In this document: positions 19,633 to 61,818 of the stretch, in pieces
How positions within the stretch are numbered: position 1 is the stretch's first letter
How the letters are laid out: every line of letters begins with the position of its first letter
From: an uncultured Candidatus Saccharibacteria bacterium
GTDB lineage: Bacteria; Patescibacteriota; Minisyncoccia; Phycocordibacterales; PALSA-1337
Assembly: GCA_964495685.1 (NCBI GenBank)
Contig: CAZBVQ010000001.1
Location: 373,568-437,567, forward strand
Length of the DNA stretch: 64,000 nucleotides
Reading direction: 5' to 3'
The notes under the pieces: model-generated
The model's database searches: none
The model's input: the letters and a program-made list of their open reading frames with translations, nothing else
What the model was told of the DNA's origin: nothing
Translations under genes and position numbers: made by a program

Positions 19633-21387
19633 CTATCTTCTCTCTCTGATTTCCTCTACCAATTTTTTCACCACCTCATCCACGCTCATCTGCCCGACCT
19701 GTCCCTTGTCTCTACTTTCCAGTGTCACCTTACCAGCCTGAATATCTTTGTCGCCAATGATGATTGTATAAGGCACACGTGCATTCTTGGCGGCGCGTAT
19801 TTTTTTGCCGAAATTGTCATTTGAGTCATAAAAGTCAGAACGAATCATGGCGGCACGGAGCGCCTCGTGGATTTTCTTGGCTTCGTCGGCATGCGCTTCA
19901 GCGACGGGAATAACGGCTACTTGTGTCGGTGCCAGCCAGAGAGGGAAGTTGCCACCGTAGTGTTCTATGAGGAAGCCAATGAAGCGTTCATGAGTACCGA
20001 GTGGTGCACGGTGAATACAAAGAGGTGTCTTGGCGACACCATCTTTGTCAGTATAGGTAAGACCGAATCGAGCTGGTACAGCGAAGTCGACCTGGTTGGT
20101 GGCAAGGGTAAATTCACGACCAATGGCACTCCAGACCTGCACATCAATTTTGGGACCATAGAAAGCGGCTTCGTTGGGAACTTCAATAAAAGGAATTTTT
20201 GAATCCACGAGCACTTTGCGGACCATGTCCTCGGTCTTCTTCCAGAGCGCTGGTTCGTTGACGAACTTCTGGCCCAATTTCCTGGGATCATGAGTCGAGA
20301 AACGCATGACGTACTTGTCGACACCGAAAATCTTGAAATACTGGAGATACATATCATTCACGGCCTTGAATTCATCGGCAAACTGTTCTTCTGTGCAGTA
20401 CATGTGCGCATCATTCATCTGGAGTGTGCGTACGCGCATGAGTCCGAAGAGCTCACCTGATTTCTCGTGACGATAACAGGTGCCGTATTCTGCCAAGCGA
20501 AGTGGTAGGTCGCGATAGCTCTTGGGACGAGCTCCGAAAATCTTGTGGTGATGCGGACAGTTCATGGCTTTCAGATAATATTTGCCGCCCTCGTATTCCA
20601 TCGGAGGATACATGGACTCTTCGTAGTAAGGCAGGTGACCACTCTTCAGGTACATTGATTCCTTGGCGATATGCGGTGTGCGTACACGAACATAGCCCAT
20701 TTTGAATTCAGTCTCTTTTGCCAATTTTTCTAGTTCCTCGACCAAGACTGCACCGTTCGGCAACCAGAGGGGGAGCCCTGGGCCGACATCATCATCAAAT
20801 TCGAAGAGGTCGAGCTCTTTGCCTAGCTTGCGGTGATCGCGCTTCTCAGCTTCTTTCATCATAGTTTCGTACTCGTCTAGGCCGGGCCTGGACTCGAACG
20901 CCAGGCCGTAGATACGCGTCAGTTGCGCGTTCTCCTCACTTCCACGCCAGTAGGCGCCAGCGAGTCGATTGAGCTTGAAACAATCAGATGGGATATCCTT
21001 TGCGGGATTTTCGATATGGCCACCACGGCAGAGGTCAGTAAATTTGCCCATAGTGTAGAAGGTAATTTTTTCACCCTTCTCAGCAATCTCATTGATGAGC
21101 TCTATCTTGTACGGATTGGTCTTGAAATGCTCCAGAGCTTCTTCTTTGCTGACTTCCTTGTGCTCGACTGATTTCCATGAAGGTAGAAGTTTGCGCATTT
21201 TCTTTTCGATATCCTTGAGGTCTTTCTCAACGATAGGAGTCTTGAATTCGAAGTCGTAATAAAAACCGTTATCGATGGCAGGACCGATGGTCGGCTTGGT
21301 GTCGGGATGTAGTTCAAGTACCGCCGCGGCCAAGAGGTGGGCGAGTGTGTGACGGAGATGGGGGAGGTGGTCGTTTGTTGGATTCAT
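19633..21387 (-). CDS. thrS: Threonine--tRNA ligase (short form lacking the N-terminal TGS domain)
   Basis: Class II core plus N2 editing-domain HxxxH region (LRHTLAHLLAAAV), motifs 2/3, C-terminal anticodon-binding domain. Confidence 0.9.
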   Translation of the reverse strand: MNPTNDHLPHLRHTLAHLLAAAVLELHPDTKPTIGPAIDNGFYYDFEFKTPIVEKDLKDIEKKMRKLLPSWKSVEHKEVSKEEALEHFKTNPYKIELINEIAEKGEKITFYTMGKFTDLCRGGHIENPAKDIPSDCFKLNRLAGAYWRGSEENAQLTRIYGLAFESRPGLDEYETMMKEAEKRDHRKLGKELDLFEFDDDVGPGLPLWLPNGAVLVEELEKLAKETEFKMGYVRVRTPHIAKESMYLKSGHLPYYEESMYPPMEYEGGKYYLKAMNCPHHHKIFGARPKSYRDLPLRLAEYGTCYRHEKSGELFGLMRVRTLQMNDAHMYCTEEQFADEFKAVNDMYLQYFKIFGVDKYVMRFSTHDPRKLGQKFVNEPALWKKTEDMVRKVLVDSKIPFIEVPNEAAFYGPKIDVQVWSAIGREFTLATNQVDFAVPARFGLTYTDKDGVAKTPLCIHRAPLGTHERFIGFLIEHYGGNFPLWLAPTQVAVIPVAEAHADEAKKIHEALRAAMIRSDFYDSNDNFGKKIRAAKNARVPYTIIIGDKDIQAGKVTLESRDKGQVGQMSVDEVVKKLVEEIRERR

Positions 21388-21690
21388 GTTGTGTGTTTGC
21401 GCAGGTCTACCCTGCGCATGTTATTGATAAATAAAACGCCCGAGTATATACGCGAAAATTCACGTACATACTCGGGCGGAGAACTAATGTTCTTCGTGGT
21501 TCCACCGAGTTTCCCTTCGACAAGCGTAGGGCACTCTTTGGTACAGATTGGTCTCGACTGTGAGATCGGATGGATCCGACTACGATTGGTGGCCGTAGCG
21601 ACTTCTGTGCAGGTAATTATATAATTTCTTTTATATTCAGTAAATAGGATGTGTAGTTGCGCATACATAAATATTATGGCACACTATTTT
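21388..21690 (-). promoter_or_regulatory. Putative T-box leader of thrS (minus strand)
   Basis: Minus-strand CUCGGUGGAACCACG at plus 21494-21512 resembles the T-box consensus AGGGUGGNACCGCG. Downstream terminator at 21437-21478 (CGCCCGAGUAU ... AUACUCGGGCG plus U-run), whose 3' arm is mimicked by the T-box CUCGG (antiterminator logic). An upstream hairpin loop GCCACCAAU contains the Thr codon ACC followed by A. Confidence 0.4.
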
Positions 21691-21709
21691 AGAACAAAGA
21701 GAGGATTCT

Positions 21710-30124: not shown

Positions 30125-32041
30125 TTATATCTTGAGCATATCGAGGAGCATGGCTACTTTGAGGGTTGCCACTCCTACGACCAAGTCAGCACCTCCATAA
30201 TATATATAGACAGTTCCATTTCTGATCACCATACCACAAGGGAATACGACATTGGAGACAATACCGCTCAATTCGTATGGTGCCTCTGGTTCAAAGAAGG
30301 GTATTGCAGTACGGGCAAGCACAATAGTCGGATCGGTAAGATCGAGAAGTACAGCGCCTACGCGATATACAGAGCTCCATGAGACGCCATGGTAGAGCAT
30401 GAGCCAGCCGTGGGCAGTCCGTACGGGCGGAGTAGAAATGCCTACCTTCATGCCGTCCCACATACCTCGACGTGGTGACATTATCTCGATACAACGGGTG
30501 ACTTTTTCTTTTGAAAAATCCAAAGAATTGACGAAATCGGCGCAGATGCTTTCGTGGACACGATGGAGGACCATGTATTTGCCATCGATAGCTTCGGGGA
30601 CGATGGCGGCATCTTTGTTGTCTATGTTCATCGGCGTAATAATCTCAGGCTTGGTCCACGCACTCCATGTGCGCTTCAAGAAATCGTCGGTGCCGATAGA
30701 GGTGACCGCCACTCGCGGTAATCCACCGTCGTATGCTGTATAGGTCATGTATACACGAGTACCAATTAGCATGATACGAGGATCCTCGCAGCCACGTGAC
30801 TCGAAGCTGATGCGGGGGCTGTATATAGGTTTGTCTGAACGTTCGTCTATGGTAAATCCGTCACTCGTAGTGGCATACCCAATAGTTGATATGTTGTCGG
30901 CAGAAACGGCGCGATAGAGGATGTGTGTCTTGTTGCCCAGATCTATGGCGGCAGGATTGAGTGTACCTCGAGCTTCCCAGAGAACCCCTGGACGTGGAGC
31001 AATGATAGGATTGCCGGCAAATCGCTTCAAGGCAGTTTTGCCTGATGATGGTGCGAGCGACTCGAGGAGTGGCTCCATTGGAATAGTTGCTACTGAACAA
31101 TGGGAATCGGCTGCGCCATAATAAATCTCCAAATGCTCGCCTCGAATCAGTGCACCTGAAGGGAAGATGGTATGGGGAACTTGCCCCACGTGTTCGTAGA
31201 AGAAATCGGGGACCATGAAAGGACCTTTGGTGCTACCGATGACGTTGAGTGGATTTTTCTCATCGAGTAGGAGCAGCTCTATGCCGAATACATGATCAGG
31301 TTTGTCGTAACGTTGGATGTGAGAATACACGATCAGCCACCCTTTGTCTGTTTTGACCGGGACAGCACCAAGCTCAACATGGTCATCGCCGCGTCGGCGA
31401 ATGTTCAGTTTGTGCGCGTCGAGATTCTTGTACCATTCGTTCCAATAATCTGCGGACCAGATATCCTCGGGTGTATTGAATTCGATGTAACAAATATCGG
31501 AAGGTTTGCGGTCAGTGTTCACGGTGACCAGCGCAGCCAACTTGCCGTTTATTTTCTCAGGGAAAAGAGCCATAGCTTTGGCGTTGAACGGTGTCACCAA
31601 GTGCTTCTCGGTGATAGTTTTGAGATCAGTACTCAGGGCTACACAGACCTTGATATTATTGGCAGAAAAGGGGAAGCCGCCGAGGCCGGTATAGAAAATA
31701 TAGTAGGTTTTGCCGATCTTGGTGACACGCGGATCTTCACAGCCATAGCGATCGAAGTCTGCATCAGGTGAAATGAGTACGGAACGGTTCTCATAATCTA
31801 TGCCATCCTTGGAATCGGCTCGGGCAATCACGGACATACGGATATGGGGCTCCTTGAGAAGGTCTGGCTCGGACATGGCACGATATACCAGAGTCGTCCT
31901 GCGCCCCTGAATAATGGGGGATCCATTGAATGCAGCAGCCGCTTCCCATGGATGTTCGCGGAACGGGGAGAGGATAGGGTTATGTGGAGAACGGGTGACA
32001 GTGAACATGGTGTTGATTATATCATGCAGGAATCTGCTCAC
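30125..32041 (-). CDS. Tandem two-domain GH130-family glycoside phosphorylase (beta-mannoside phosphorylase-like)
   Basis: Two repeats of the GH130 signature (YGCEDPRVTKIGKTYYIFYTG; RGCEDPRIMLIGTRVYMTYTAYDG) within 638 aa. Confidence 0.7.
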   Translation of the reverse strand: MSRFLHDIINTMFTVTRSPHNPILSPFREHPWEAAAAFNGSPIIQGRRTTLVYRAMSEPDLLKEPHIRMSVIARADSKDGIDYENRSVLISPDADFDRYGCEDPRVTKIGKTYYIFYTGLGGFPFSANNIKVCVALSTDLKTITEKHLVTPFNAKAMALFPEKINGKLAALVTVNTDRKPSDICYIEFNTPEDIWSADYWNEWYKNLDAHKLNIRRRGDDHVELGAVPVKTDKGWLIVYSHIQRYDKPDHVFGIELLLLDEKNPLNVIGSTKGPFMVPDFFYEHVGQVPHTIFPSGALIRGEHLEIYYGAADSHCSVATIPMEPLLESLAPSSGKTALKRFAGNPIIAPRPGVLWEARGTLNPAAIDLGNKTHILYRAVSADNISTIGYATTSDGFTIDERSDKPIYSPRISFESRGCEDPRIMLIGTRVYMTYTAYDGGLPRVAVTSIGTDDFLKRTWSAWTKPEIITPMNIDNKDAAIVPEAIDGKYMVLHRVHESICADFVNSLDFSKEKVTRCIEIMSPRRGMWDGMKVGISTPPVRTAHGWLMLYHGVSWSSVYRVGAVLLDLTDPTIVLARTAIPFFEPEAPYELSGIVSNVVFPCGMVIRNGTVYIYYGGADLVVGVATLKVAMLLDMLKI

Positions 32042-33170
32042 GTATGTTGCCGTAGGTGGTCATCCACGTGAGAAGGTCGTTGAGTGGCGTTTCGGCAATG
32101 CAGGTATGTCTGTCGCCTCCGCCATAGTAGATGACGAGTCGTCCGTCGCGTATCAGGGCGCCTGAGGCATAGACTATGCCTGGTTTGCCATCATTCTCGT
32201 AACACATATCAGGAGAGAGGATCGGTTCTGGTGAACGATACAGAATCACGCTCGGGTCATTCGTGTCGAGAATCATAGCGCCGAGTTTGTATTTGCTCCA
32301 GTCCTTCTTGTCTATGGCGTGATAGAGCAGAAGCCAACCGATAGGTGTCTTGATCGGTGGAGGTCCAGCTCCACGTAGGGTGTTGTCCCAGAATTGATCA
32401 CGCCCGGGCTGAGGCCCTTGTGGACGTTCGCTTTGTATGTGACCGTCAAAGTGCTCAATATCATCAACATAATCGATCAAGATACGCGGAGCGATGCCGT
32501 GTAAGATAGCATATTTACCTTTTATTTTTTCTGGGAAAAGAACCCAGTTTTTGTGGACCTGACCAGGTGGTGAAATGAGGCGAGGTTTTTTCCAATTCCA
32601 GCGCTCCTTCTTCAAATCCTTGAGTGCAATCGAGGTAAGGGCGATGCGCACGGAACTCCAACCCTGGAAAGCGGTATAGGTCATATAAACACGGTCACCA
32701 ATTTTCACGGCACGTGGATCCTCATGCCCACCCCATCCACCGCCAGATGTGTAGATGGCAGGATTGTATGTCTTGAGTCGGTCTGATGCGGATAGGACTT
32801 TCTCTTCCGTGTGCGGTCGATATACAGGGAATGATGAACGTCGGTCAAAATTCTTGCCATCTTTGCTTGATGCGTGACCAATAGTAGAAAGTCCATCACT
32901 GCCGATGGCGCGATAGAGGAGATGGACGCGACCTTCGTCGTCTTGCACTGCTGCTGGATTGAAGGTACCGTTGGCTTCCCATTCCTGATGAGGACGAGGG
33001 GACATGACTGGATTTGCTCCATGTCTCTCTACACGGTGGCTCCTAGATTTCTTTTTGCCACTACGTTGTGTATGTTCCGAAATGAGATGCCATACAATAC
33101 CGATTGCAATGGCGAGTGCCAGAGCAAAAAGTCCTATGACGAGTGTTGAATAATCTGCTGTAACGTTCAT
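32022..33170 (-). CDS. Membrane-anchored GH130-family glycoside phosphorylase
   Basis: N-terminal TM helix, then the GH130 signature GHEDPRAVKIGDRVYMTYTAFQG. Overlaps the downstream GH130 gene, consistent with an operon. Confidence 0.7.
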   Translation of the reverse strand: MNVTADYSTLVIGLFALALAIAIGIVWHLISEHTQRSGKKKSRSHRVERHGANPVMSPRPHQEWEANGTFNPAAVQDDEGRVHLLYRAIGSDGLSTIGHASSKDGKNFDRRSSFPVYRPHTEEKVLSASDRLKTYNPAIYTSGGGWGGHEDPRAVKIGDRVYMTYTAFQGWSSVRIALTSIALKDLKKERWNWKKPRLISPPGQVHKNWVLFPEKIKGKYAILHGIAPRILIDYVDDIEHFDGHIQSERPQGPQPGRDQFWDNTLRGAGPPPIKTPIGWLLLYHAIDKKDWSKYKLGAMILDTNDPSVILYRSPEPILSPDMCYENDGKPGIVYASGALIRDGRLVIYYGGGDRHTCIAETPLNDLLTWMTTYGNIREQIPA

Positions 33171-35619: not shown

Positions 35620-35984
35620 TGGCTCCGCGGCCAGGGATCGAACCTGGGACATCCTCGTTACGTTTGGTCTCCTATTACTAGGGGTACGGACTATATCATC
35701 TCCAATGAAACTCGTGTCAAAGCTTCATTACGGAGTAAGGCGCTTCCCAGAGCATATTGCTCCAGTACTCCCACAAGGGGATAGTCTCTGAACCTTTCCC
35801 TCACATGGATTCTTGCTATGTCATCGGTGTACATAACAAAGATTCATGTGAGGGACTTGGCTGCTGATTGCCCACATTTGCATGTTGGGGTTTCCGGCAA
35901 TTCACCTTATTTTTCAGCCTAAGTTTCCTTAGGAAGCTGCTATTCTCTAACAGCGAGGCGCTCTACCGGCTGAGCTACCGCGGA
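35620..35984 (-). tRNA. tRNA-Asn (anticodon GUU) interrupted by a 289-nt group I intron
   Basis: 5' exon at plus 35950-35984 gives TCCGCGG-TA-GCTC-AGCCGGTA-GAGC-G-CCTCG-CTGT. 3' exon at plus 35620-35660 gives TAA-CGAGG-ATGTC-CCAGG-TTCGATC-CCTGG-CCGCGGA-G-CCA. Spliced cloverleaf is canonical with anticodon loop CUGUUAA. Intron (plus 35661-35949) follows U35 and ends in G. P1 is GCTGT/GCAGC with U-G, P2 is CCTAAG-GAAA-CTTAGG. Core elements P AATTGCCGGAAA, Q AATCAGCAGC, R GTTCAGAGACTA and S GATATAGTCC are all present. Confidence 0.8.
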
Positions 35985-58911: not shown

Positions 58912-61818
58912 ATGAAGAAGTCCATCTCCAAGCCCACGGGGTTGTCCGTATATGACCACAAGGCTATCGAATCCAAGTGGCAGAAAGTGTGGGAGAAGAA
59001 AAAGTCGTATCAAGTAAAGGAGGATTTAAATAAAAAGAAGTTTTACGGTCTCATCGAATTTCCATATCCATCCGGAGATGGTCTCCATGTCGGTCACATC
59101 CGCAGCAACACGGCAATGGACGTCATTGCCCGCAAGCGCCGCGCTGAAGGGTTCAATGTGCTGTATCCGATTGGTTGGGACGCTTTTGGCCTACCGACAG
59201 AGAACTATGCCATCAAGACAGGTATCCAGCCAGCTATTGTTACAAAAAAGAATACGGACACATTCCGCCGTCAACTCAAGGCACTTGGCTTCTCATTTGA
59301 TTGGTCACGTGAAATAGACACTACTGATCCTGCGTATTACAAATGGACGCAGTGGATATTCCTGCAATTCTTCAAGAAGGGATTGGCGTACAAAAAGAAG
59401 ATGACCATCAATTGGTGTCCGAAGGATTTGATCGGTCTAGCCAATGAAGAAGTCGTGGATGGAAAATGTGAGCGTTGTGGTACAGCTGTAGAAAAGCGCG
59501 AGAAAGAACAGTGGATGTTGGCGATTACGAAGTATGCGGAGAGGTTGGATAAGGATCTAGATAAGACGCAATTTCTAGAGAAGATCAAAATTCAGCAGAG
59601 GAATTGGATAGGGAAGAGTGAGGGGGCGGAGATTGATTTTGAAATACGAAATGAAAAAATAACAGTCTTTACGACACGACCGGATACTCTTTTCGGGGTG
59701 ACATACATCGTCTTGGCACCTGAGCACGTATTGATACAGCAACTACTTTCTGTAGTCGAAAACAAAAAGGATATCGAGGAATATATTTCAAAGGCAAAGA
59801 AGGAGTCAGAGATGGAGCGCACTGATGCTTCCAAAGAAAAAACAGGTGTTGAGCTGAAGGGTATCAAAGCCATCAATCCTGCCAATAATGAAGAGGTGCC
59901 GGTGTGGATCGCGGACTATGTCCTGGCCGACTATGGTACGGGTGCGGTCATGGCGGTGCCTGCGCATGATGAGCGAGATTACGCATTTGCCAAGAAATAT
60001 GGATTGCCAATAAGGGACGTCGTCATGCCTATAAGAGTCGATGCTTCAAATCCACATGTTCATGGTAAGAAGGTTGTGGAGCGTAAGGCCGTACAAGCAA
60101 TTATTGTGGATCCGAAAACAAAGAAGATTCTTTGCCTCAAATGGAAAAAGCAACCGTGGACAACGTTTGTTGTTGGGGGTGTTGAGGGTAACGAAGATAG
60201 TGTCGAGGCGGCGCGTAGAGAAATTGCTGAAGAGACTGGATACACAGATCTCAAACTCGTACGTGTCCTCGGGGGGCCAGTACGAAGTGAATTTTTTGCC
60301 GCACACAAAGATGTCAATCGTATCGCGTATTTCAATGCAATTCATTTTGAGCTTGCGAGCGACAAACGGACACCGTTGACTGATGAGGAGCAAGAGAAGC
60401 ATGAAGTAATCTGGATGGATGCTGATGCTATCGGACCTGGTGTTATGCAATGTGGAGAGCTTGATATTTGGATGAACCGATTCAAGACGGGCAACGATGT
60501 TGTTCTTGAAGATGGCGAGCTCATCAATTCAGGATCCTTCAACGGTAAGGAGTCATTATTAGTTAAAAAAGAAATTACTGAATCTGTCGGTGGGAAGTGG
60601 ATCACCACCTTCAAACTCCGCGACTGGATCTTCTCCCGCCAGCGCTACTGGGGTGAGCCGATTCCCGTCATCAACTGTGAAAAATGTGGCCTTGTCCCTG
60701 TCCCAGAAAAAGATTTGCCCGTGAAGTTGCCAGCGGTAAAGAATTACAAGCCCACTGAAACAGGCGAGTCACCATTGGCTGCAATTACGAAGTGGGTCAA
60801 CACCAAGTGTCCGCAATGCAAAGGTAAAGCCACCCGCGAAACTGACACCATGCCAAATTGGGCGGGTTCAAGTTGGTACTATTTGCGCTATGCTGATGCA
60901 CATAATAAGAAAGAATTCGCCTCAAAAAAGAGTCTGGACTATTGGACACCAGTCGATTGGTACAATGGTGGTATGGAACACACCACGCTCCACTTACTCT
61001 ATTCTCGTTTCTGGCACAAATTCCTCTTTGATCTTGGATTGGTACCGACTGATGAACCATATACCAAACGTACCTCCCATGGCCTCATTTTGGCCGAAGG
61101 TGGGGTCAAAATGTCGAAGTCAAAGGGCAACGTCATCAACCCTGATAGTATTGTCGAAACAGTCGGCGCTGACAGTTTGCGCCTCTATGAGATGTTCATG
61201 GGACCATTCGACCAGCCGATTTCGTGGGATACCAATAATATTGCTGGGGTCAGACGTTTCTTGGAACGAGTCTGGAAGTTGAGAGAGAAAGTAGTAAACT
61301 CTAAACTCGAAACTCTGAATTCTAAACAAATTCAAAATTCGAAATTTGAAATTCAAAACGCAGCAGACAAAATCATCCACAAAACTATCAAGAAAGTCAG
61401 TGACGATATCGAAGCGATGCGCTTCAATACGGCCGTGAGTGCACTCATGATCGCCCTCAACGAACTGGAGAAGATAGAAACTATCGGTACACAGCAGTAC
61501 GCATCATTCCTGCAGCTTCTGGCACCCTTCGCGCCTCATATTGTCGAAGAATTGTGGGCATCACTCGGAAATAAGACGTCTGTCCATCTCGCTCCGTGGC
61601 CGACGTATGATGCGTCGTTGGCTGTGGATAATGAGGTGACTATCATGGTGCAAATCAATGGCAAAGTGCGGGGCTCATTCATGGTGCCTGTGGATTCTAG
61701 TAGGGAAGAGCTCGAATCCCGTGCCAAAGCTCTTCCCGAAGCGGCCAAGTGGATCGCTGGTGGTCAGATCAAGAAAGTTATCGTGGTACTCAACAAATTG
61801 GTCAATATTGTTGTCTAG
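58912..61818 (+). CDS. leuS: Leucine--tRNA ligase with a NUDIX hydrolase domain inserted between the CP1/editing region and the leucyl-specific domain
   Basis: HIGH (HVGH), editing-domain T-rich region (TTRPDTLFGV), KMSKS, anticodon-binding C-terminus. Perfect Nudix box GGVEGNEDSVEAARREIAEETGY in an insert of about 140 aa at roughly nt 60040-60490. Two tandem terminators at 58820-58880 upstream. Confidence 0.9.
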   Translation: MKKSISKPTGLSVYDHKAIESKWQKVWEKKKSYQVKEDLNKKKFYGLIEFPYPSGDGLHVGHIRSNTAMDVIARKRRAEGFNVLYPIGWDAFGLPTENYAIKTGIQPAIVTKKNTDTFRRQLKALGFSFDWSREIDTTDPAYYKWTQWIFLQFFKKGLAYKKKMTINWCPKDLIGLANEEVVDGKCERCGTAVEKREKEQWMLAITKYAERLDKDLDKTQFLEKIKIQQRNWIGKSEGAEIDFEIRNEKITVFTTRPDTLFGVTYIVLAPEHVLIQQLLSVVENKKDIEEYISKAKKESEMERTDASKEKTGVELKGIKAINPANNEEVPVWIADYVLADYGTGAVMAVPAHDERDYAFAKKYGLPIRDVVMPIRVDASNPHVHGKKVVERKAVQAIIVDPKTKKILCLKWKKQPWTTFVVGGVEGNEDSVEAARREIAEETGYTDLKLVRVLGGPVRSEFFAAHKDVNRIAYFNAIHFELASDKRTPLTDEEQEKHEVIWMDADAIGPGVMQCGELDIWMNRFKTGNDVVLEDGELINSGSFNGKESLLVKKEITESVGGKWITTFKLRDWIFSRQRYWGEPIPVINCEKCGLVPVPEKDLPVKLPAVKNYKPTETGESPLAAITKWVNTKCPQCKGKATRETDTMPNWAGSSWYYLRYADAHNKKEFASKKSLDYWTPVDWYNGGMEHTTLHLLYSRFWHKFLFDLGLVPTDEPYTKRTSHGLILAEGGVKMSKSKGNVINPDSIVETVGADSLRLYEMFMGPFDQPISWDTNNIAGVRRFLERVWKLREKVVNSKLETLNSKQIQNSKFEIQNAADKIIHKTIKKVSDDIEAMRFNTAVSALMIALNELEKIETIGTQQYASFLQLLAPFAPHIVEELWASLGNKTSVHLAPWPTYDASLAVDNEVTIMVQINGKVRGSFMVPVDSSREELESRAKALPEAAKWIAGGQIKKVIVVLNKLVNIVV

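Follow-up and report, generated by a model that had tools for sequence, protein, structure and literature searches.

A probable T-box riboswitch with a minimal, non-canonical decoding domain in the thrS leader of a Patescibacteria-type genome

T-box riboswitches are usually seen as a Gram-positive hallmark, and the question raised by the locus described here is whether such an element precedes the threonine--tRNA ligase gene (thrS) in a reduced genome of the Candidate Phyla Radiation (CPR). The window, by which is meant the whole stretch of 64,000 nucleotides that was analysed (contig CAZBVQ010000001.1, positions 373,568 to 437,567), is deposited as DNA of an uncultured Candidatus Saccharibacteria bacterium, and a preliminary description of it, made from the sequence alone, had proposed a T-box riboswitch on the minus strand upstream of thrS. 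On the Rfam score alone this reading would be rejected; the comparative evidence overrides that score. The leader is probably a T-box riboswitch that senses tRNA-Thr and controls thrS by transcription attenuation, with a minimal, non-canonical decoding domain, and we give this reading a probability of about 0.85.

The thrS gene (19633-21387, minus strand) encodes a threonine--tRNA ligase of 584 aa, matching TIGR00418 with 641.7 bits (cut-off 383.65), and an exact match of this ThrRS protein is found on a 521,699-bp ENA metagenome contig. An intergenic space of 322 nt (21388-21709) separates thrS from a divergent open reading frame (ORF) of 104 aa, and the thrS leader spans positions 21608-21427 on the minus strand, as do all its elements discussed below. 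The closest thrS loci come from metagenome-assembled genomes (MAGs) labelled Patescibacteria, Parcubacteria, Paceibacterota, Nomurabacteria, Taylorbacteria or, as a third-party annotation (TPA) label, Saccharibacteria, where the taxon names of related loci are the record labels as deposited. The guess of a CPR-like genome made in the preliminary description is reasonable in view of these nearest loci, from MAGs labelled Patescibacteria, Parcubacteria or Paceibacterota. The sequence GGTGGAACC recurs in many of the related loci, 88-215 nt upstream of thrS, and the related leaders are visibly homologous from the promoter through the terminator.

Sixteen distinct leaders were aligned (the window, L005, L006, L007, L010, L011, L013, L015, L016, L018, L028, L052, L086, L093, L095 and L099), and the counts given below refer to this set. 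The register-fixed alignments A2 and A3 were made from fixed offsets to invariant motifs; a MAFFT alignment of the untrimmed leaders (alignment A1) misregistered the closing helix P1. The leaders share a common plan, whose first half consists, from 5' to 3', of the 5' strand of P1, RRUY, a G, the hairpin P2, one to three short hairpins, a C, YAA and the 3' strand of P1. In the second half follow an A-rich linker with RRRxG, Stem III, AA(A), the 5' strand of antiterminator helix A1, UGGAACC, helix A2, and the 3' strand of A1 with the terminator. When the antiterminator state is considered in alignment A2, 90.8% of the cells are paired and changes on both sides are seen in 15 of 19 pairs, with a covariation score of 0.647, as compared with 0.273 for shuffled alignments (0/500 reach the observed value) and 0.07-0.13 for slid controls. 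The terminator-state alignment is similar, although there the 3' arm of the terminator was picked by best complement, which biases the result for that helix. In agreement with these data, the minimum free energy (MFE) folds of the single sequences, which do not depend on any alignment, contain P1 in 13 and P2 in 15 of the leaders, usually within a four-way junction. Direct observation covers the sequence elements and how well they are conserved, the covariation seen in P1, P2, A1 and the terminator, the exclusive choice between the two pairings, and where the promoter lies.

A covariance model built from the homologous leaders (R1; 136 positions, 21 pairs) was run over the window together with 160 loci, about 1.06 Mb in all, and its matches are found only immediately upstream of thrS and on the thrS strand. 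There are 20 matching loci, two of them duplicates, which gives 18 distinct sequences counting the window. The window itself holds one match, at 21469-21609, of 102.5 bits (E about 4e-25 to 1e-24), and the runner-up with the filters off reaches 13.8 bits. Outside the seed, R1 matches L055 with 68 bits and L062, which is divergent, with 38.9 bits, and on the canonical thrS T-boxes of other lineages (L144, L148, L150, L153, L157, L159 and L163) it recognizes the discriminator only, with 20-29 bits. The overall proposal of a T-box on thrS is therefore supported by the covariation in the 16 leaders and by the R1 matches being confined to thrS. About one quarter of the Patescibacteria-labelled thrS loci carry the leader.

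Three of the carriers, L052 (CAZQHN010000001.1), L055 (CAZFYY010000029.1) and L062 (CAYQCH010000007.1), bear the TPA MAG label 'uncultured Gammaproteobacteria'; the leader is present outside Patescibacteria unless these labels are wrong. Two leaders, L062 among them, have a different 5' part. In the Peregrinibacteria-labelled L048 (3782-3937) a helix UUCAAG/CUUGAG is seen together with a short upper stem and an internal loop that has ACU-A on its 3' side, and L062 (3721-3893) retains P1, GAUUG and CAA, with a 73-nt insert at the place of P2. Both look intermediate and may mark a route from the canonical Stem I to the compact form.

The discriminator region of the leader is canonical. The T-box sequence with its UGGN bulge, which the preliminary description had read on this strand, is present as CUCGGUGGAACCACG (CUCGG-UGGAACC-ACG) at 21509-21495. 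It is preceded, at 21542-21511, by the A-rich linker, the purine string GAGUG (21536-21532), Stem III (CCCU...AGGG, 21531-21513) and AA(A), and the succession GAGUG-Stem III-AAA fits the 5'-RRRxG-Stem III-AA-3' discriminator motif (PMC7583486). Stem III is found in 13 leaders and is missing from L028, L093 and L095. The antiterminator (21510-21470) is formed by helix A1, in which ACUCGG (21510-21505) pairs with CCGAGU (21475-21470), by the 7-nt bulge UGGAACC (21504-21498) and by A2 (21497-21476). Double-sided changes occur at four of the six A1 pairs, with 94.8% of the cells paired, and the bulge is identical in 15 of the leaders. From its UGGA, a U at the discriminator base of tRNA-Thr (U73) is predicted.

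The intrinsic terminator follows at 21478-21427, with a 19-bp, 10-GC stem (21478-21437) and the U tract UUUUAUUUAU (21436-21427). Its 5' arm overlaps the 3' strands of A2 and A1, and the CCGAGU segment (21475-21470) within this arm can pair with the T-box segment ACUCGG or, alternatively, with UACUCGGGCG, the 3' arm of the terminator. As CCGAGU is complementary to both partners and the two pairings are mutually exclusive, this is the classical competition between antiterminator and terminator, and the alternative pairing that the preliminary description had deduced from the mimicry of a terminator arm by the T-box CUCGG is borne out. In constrained folds the terminator hairpin alone has an energy of -33.4 kcal/mol, compared with -11.2 kcal/mol for the antiterminator alone, an imbalance that is usual in T-boxes and must be overcome by the binding of tRNA. 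The full leader folds to -70.7 kcal/mol, beating 200/200 shuffles (z = -6.6). A terminator-like hairpin with a T-rich tract, likewise overlapping the A1 3' strand, is present in all 16 leaders (less U-rich in L013, L028 and L093). It is located at least 40 nt upstream of the start codon in each of them, and this terminator, rather than Shine-Dalgarno sequestration, is the expression platform.

A further GC-rich hairpin of 8 bp (GCGCAGG-GUAGA-CCUGCGC, 21398-21418) lies downstream of this terminator, ahead of the thrS start codon; the scan flags it as terminator-like on the plus strand, and it is missing from related leaders such as L005. A 94-aa ORF (21384-21668, minus strand), present as a gene call in the ENA and Logan annotations, has no Pfam match and lies wholly within the T-box leader. 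No open frame is kept at this place across the 16 homologous leaders, and the ORF is most likely a spurious gene call.

The 5' part of the leader does not have the canonical architecture. The 5' strand of P1, ACAGA (21608-21604), pairs with UCUGU (21547-21543) when the leader is folded by MFE, and the helix closes off the aptamer junction. Its four core pairs are paired in 15-16 of the 16 sequences, and three of them show double changes; among the pair types observed are C-G/A-U/U-A/G-U, A-U/G-C/C-G and A-U/U-G. Next to P1 an internal loop is formed by AGUC (consensus RRUY) in the segment 21603-21599, which ends with G21599, and by CAA (consensus YAA) in the segment 21551-21543, which begins with C21551 and ends with the P1 3' strand. 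The G21599-C21551 pair is G-C in 15 leaders and G-U in one. In the loop the U and the AA are invariant, the RR positions are always purines, and the two pyrimidines covary without a Watson-Crick option, being C:C in six leaders, U:U in ten and mixed in none (Fisher p = 1.2e-4, uncorrected for phylogeny); the divergent L062 is an exception, with U/C. A run of at least five purines ends in this loop in 12 of the leaders. The likeness of RRUY/YAA to the S-turn (loop E) consensus AGUA/GAA suggests that the loop is S-turn-like. The S-turn motif is located above the specifier in canonical Stem I, and by analogy the P1 loop may replace the S-turn of Stem II or the elbow contact.

The hairpin P2 (CUACGG-CCACCAA-UCGUAG, 21598-21580) has a 6-bp stem and a 7-nt apical loop, which contains the putative specifier ACC (Thr, 21590-21588), followed by a conserved purine (A21587). 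The upstream hairpin with a Thr codon and a purine in its loop, as described earlier, is thereby confirmed, since the P2 loop contains ACC-A (21590-21587) without exception in the 16 thrS leaders. Changes on both sides are seen at all six pairs of the P2 stem, with 95.8% of the cells paired, and the consensus of the loop is YN-ACC-A-N, of 7 nt and rarely 8 nt, on a 6-bp stem. The assignment of ACC as the specifier is suggested by its invariance, its match to the regulated gene and the purine that follows it. When two 7-nt loops of the anticodon type form a loop-loop complex, its stability is unusually high for only three base pairs, and by analogy such stability may help a bare apical loop to capture the tRNA. 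The four-way junction is completed by the variable hairpins P3 (CGGA-UCCA-UCCG, 21578-21567) and P4 (UCUC-ACAGUC-GAGA, 21565-21552). At these sites most homologues have hairpins of unrelated sequence, between one and three per leader (one in L013), which are short (4-6 bp) and not conserved in sequence. The decoding domain thus comprises 66 nt in the window (21608-21543) and about 60-95 nt across the leaders, and the comparison of the 16 leaders finds no conserved kink-turn (K-turn), AG bulge, distal loop, F-box, loop motif or IIA/B pseudoknot.

Several other pairings in this region were considered and rejected. The RRUY/YAA loop is not read as a K-turn, having tandem G.A on neither strand. 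A pairing GAUUG/UAAUC is not conserved (the window has AGUCG) and competes with P1. The P4 loop ACAG could pair with CUGU as in a IIA/B-like pseudoknot in the window only and not in the relatives, and a reading of the P2 loop ACCA as a cis mimic of the tRNA 3' end amounts to three pairs, which are inherent to any ACC-A specifier.

A consensus scan places a sigma-70-type promoter at 21644-21616 (minus strand), with the -35 hexamer TTTACT (21644-21639), a 17-nt spacer and the -10 hexamer TATAAT (21621-21616), which ends 7-8 nt 5' of P1. The predicted transcription start, about 21609-21608, coincides with the first base of P1. A -10-like hexamer ending 6-9 nt ahead of the 6-nt window of the P1 5' strand is found in 14 of the 16 leaders, and the sequence similarity among the loci begins at P1 or at the -10 region. 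This conserved position of the -10 hexamer indicates that the RNA begins at P1, with no space for a long Stem I.

From these elements we infer tRNA binding and a regulatory outcome of the following kind. Transcription would start at about 21609, and the first 66 nt or so would fold into the four-way junction closed by P1. The 7-nt apical loop of P2, which resembles an anticodon loop, would offer ACC and its purine for pairing with the GGU anticodon of tRNA-Thr, and the UGGA of the canonical discriminator downstream would pair with the free 3'-NCCA end of the uncharged tRNA. This pairing would stabilize the weak antiterminator (-11 kcal/mol) against the stronger terminator (-33 kcal/mol), allowing readthrough into thrS. 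Charged tRNA-Thr would be unable to pair in this way, and transcription would stop at the U tract (21436-21427).

A number of points weigh against this reading. The RF00230 match that the preliminary description had proposed to look for is far below threshold, with 24.6 bits against a gathering score of 93 (E = 0.0016 in a 501-nt search and 0.21 for the whole window), and no RF00230 match at the gathering score is found anywhere in the window. The bulge of L011 is degenerate (UUGGAAAA). No tRNA-Thr gene is detected by ARAGORN in the window, in the 168 loci or in 20 kb over two contig extensions; a truncated tRNA at the end of L016 turns out to be tRNA-Phe. The leader precedes thrS only, so that a cross-check of the specifier, in which the codon tracks the gene, is not provided. 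The Stem I platform, called essential for transcriptional T-boxes (PMC7583486), is absent, which leaves fast co-transcriptional capture of the tRNA unexplained. Finally, the leader has a patchy distribution: L004 and L008, which are closest by ThrRS (84-85% identity), are without it, and from this patchiness frequent gain and loss would follow.

The low Rfam score can be understood from the alignment itself (model positions 1-219), in which the fit is good over the purine linker, Stem III and the antiterminator, while 20 nt stand in for the 88 model positions of Stem I. At the gathering score none of 11 related CPR-type loci passes, and two canonical thrS T-boxes from other lineages do. No other Rfam family explains the leader at the E-value threshold, the miRNA matches being the terminator hairpin. 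The preliminary description held that a missing RF00230 hit, together with a specifier codon outside the internal loop of Stem I, would speak against a T-box. The hit is indeed missing at threshold, the codon is found in an apical loop instead, and the AGAGA/GA (K-turn) motifs expected of Stem I are not present. Nevertheless, these tests are too narrow, because membership of the canonical class alone is addressed by them.

How the leader relates to the known T-boxes and to other regulators of thrS has to be weighed against four alternatives. Of the four T-box classes distinguished by the Zhang laboratory, class I has a long Stem I with the interdigitated T-loop module (IDTM), an internal-loop specifier and Stem II, class II is glyQS, without Stem II, class III has a short Stem I with an apical-loop specifier and requires Stem II, and class IV has an intermediate Stem I (PMC10482949). 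Transcriptional T-boxes generally require a long Stem I with the elbow-binding IDTM, and translational ones mostly have an intermediate or ultrashort Stem I (PMC7583486). With class I (RF00230; for example tyrS and thrS of Bacillus subtilis) the leader shares its logic, with RRRxG, Stem III and the A1-UGGNACC-A2 discriminator, an antiterminator and an intrinsic terminator that use the same A1 3' strand, a specifier that matches the regulated aminoacyl-tRNA synthetase (aaRS) and is followed by a purine, and an S-turn-like motif near the decoding site. It could accordingly belong to class I in the ordinary way, its long Stem I being located further upstream or masked by divergence, and in favour of this RF00230 aligns from end to end (1-219), though with most of Stem I deleted, and L048 and L062 have longer, more Stem-I-like 5' parts. 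However, the promoter lies within the 322-nt intergenic space, its -10 hexamer ending 7-8 nt before P1 at a position kept in 14/16 leaders; the conservation starts at P1, and the model trades 88 Stem I positions for 20 nt. Unlike class I, the leader has no long Stem I, and neither a K-turn nor the AG bulge and distal loop of the IDTM can be recognized in its sequence; Stem II and a IIA/B pseudoknot with F-box (CCGUYA) are likewise missing. Its codon is apical rather than in an internal loop, and it is built on a junction of about 66 nt that is closed by the 5' end of the RNA. A hidden class I element is therefore regarded as highly improbable. Class II glyQS, being transcriptional without Stem II, shows that a T-box can be pared down; it differs from the leader in its long Stem I, elbow platform and internal-loop specifier, and it is glycine-specific, which is explained by strong GGC:GCC pairing (PMC7583486).

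Apical-loop specifiers are already known from the class III ileS T-boxes of Actinobacteria such as N. farcinica and M. tuberculosis (PMC7583486, PMC10482949), which like the leader have no elbow platform and a canonical discriminator, and which probably share with it an S-turn-type motif beside the codon-anticodon duplex. The leader might, on these grounds, be a short-Stem-I T-box of this actinobacterial type in which a terminator has taken the place of the Shine-Dalgarno sequestrator. Class III, however, acts on translation by Shine-Dalgarno sequestration, whereas the leader has a 19-bp terminator with a U tract, and it needs a Stem II domain of about 70 nt that includes an S-turn, then a IIA/B pseudoknot with F-box, and a K-turn, whereas the hairpins after P2 are short (4-6 bp), variable and without F-box, and the S-turn-like loop is in P1. 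The specifier loop has 7 nt here and 5-6 nt in class III, the covarying 5'-3' closing helix P1 has no counterpart in the descriptions of classes I-IV, by which the comparison was made, and ileS of Actinobacteria stands against thrS of Patescibacteria-labelled MAGs; membership of this type is considered unlikely. Another possibility is a tRNA-independent attenuator or an operator that binds ThrRS, the T-box-like sequence being incidental or vestigial. ThrRS of E. coli binds to mimics of the anticodon arm in its own mRNA and thereby represses it, and this established autoregulation concerns the same gene and an operator hairpin of similar shape. P2 has the form of an anticodon arm, with a stem of 6-7 bp and a 7-nt loop C-U-N-N-N-A-A, and many close relatives have no leader. 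Yet the E. coli thrS translational operator shows the anticodon and binds ThrRS, while the leader shows the codon, together with a T-box bulge and a terminator. The ACC in the loop is the complement of what such a mimic would present (the Thr anticodons GGU, UGU or CGU). Conservation of the UGGAACC bulge, of A1/A2 and of the purine motif beside them is as expected for a working discriminator, and the overlap of antiterminator and terminator covaries. An attenuator or operator of this kind is quite improbable. Chance likeness to the T-box consensus beside an ordinary terminator or hairpin, for which the Rfam score far under threshold (whole-window E = 0.21) could be quoted, is ruled out, because the R1 match of 102.5 bits is followed by nothing above 14 and the fold beats all shuffles. 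The 17 other distinct homologous leaders, all upstream of thrS, with compensatory changes in four helices, and the R1 E-value of about 4e-25 to 1e-24 also refute it.

A T-box on thrS that senses tRNA-Thr is thus the preferred reading, and the leader is very probably a real new architectural variant of T-box, of a type that standard annotation misses. We lean slightly towards regarding it as a further T-box class, which would be transcriptional, would have a 5'-end-closed junction of about 60-95 nt, usually four-way, with the codon in an anticodon-loop-like apical loop next to an S-turn-like motif, and would do without elbow contact, Stem II and pseudoknot. In a literature search of incomplete coverage, no paper was found that links a T-box with CPR, Patescibacteria, Parcubacteria or Saccharibacteria; within the same limits the architecture was not found described, and apical-loop specifiers were found in actinobacterial ileS T-boxes only. 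The TBDB database covers class I through RF00230 and class II (translational) from Actinobacteria only (PMC7778990). Since it is built on RF00230 and an Actinobacteria-only model, it would miss these thrS leaders, a leader type that is invisible to current T-box databases. If the reading is true, T-box regulation reaches Patescibacteria, apparently for thrS only, and ultra-small CPR genomes monitor tRNA charging directly despite their reduction. Co-transcriptional sensing of tRNA would then be possible without the Stem I platform that is now held essential; a terminator-coupled T-box with an apical codon either challenges the rule that a transcriptional T-box depends on a long Stem I for rapid capture of the tRNA elbow, or implies a compensating contact, for example by the S-turn-like loop of P1. 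The sensor of about 140 nt, from P1 to the 3' strand of A1, would be among the smallest complete T-boxes, an appealing object for structural studies and for the engineering of tRNA sensors.

The aaRS genes are unusually dense in this region, with hisS, thrS, a Pro/Gly-like class II gene, a Lys/Asn-like gene and leuS within the 64-kb window, and a sixth, alaS, starting about 9 kb beyond its right end. Of these six genes on the contig stretch thrS alone has the leader. The preliminary description had also raised the leaders of other aaRS genes, and nothing alike is found before hisS, the Pro/Gly-like class II gene, the Lys/Asn-like gene, leuS or alaS when R1 is run with the filters off and Rfam in E-value mode, the two contig extensions included.

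The window contains some further features of interest. A tRNA-Asn(GUU) gene (35620-35984, minus strand) is interrupted by a group I intron of about 289 nt (about 35949-35661; RF00028, 81.3 bits), which is inserted in the anticodon loop between U35 and U36 (CUGU|UAA). ARAGORN misses this gene in the raw window; in-silico splicing yields a clean tRNA-Asn with an encoded 3' CCA. The leucyl-tRNA synthetase (58912-61818, plus strand, 968 aa) has a NUDIX hydrolase domain (PF00293) at residues 391-507, inserted just after the editing domain, and the same domain order is seen in the public gene calls for the contig. Two adjacent genes of GH130, the beta-1,4-mannooligosaccharide phosphorylase family, are located at 30125-33170 (minus strand), the first of them coding for 638 aa with the domain in the C-terminal half only.

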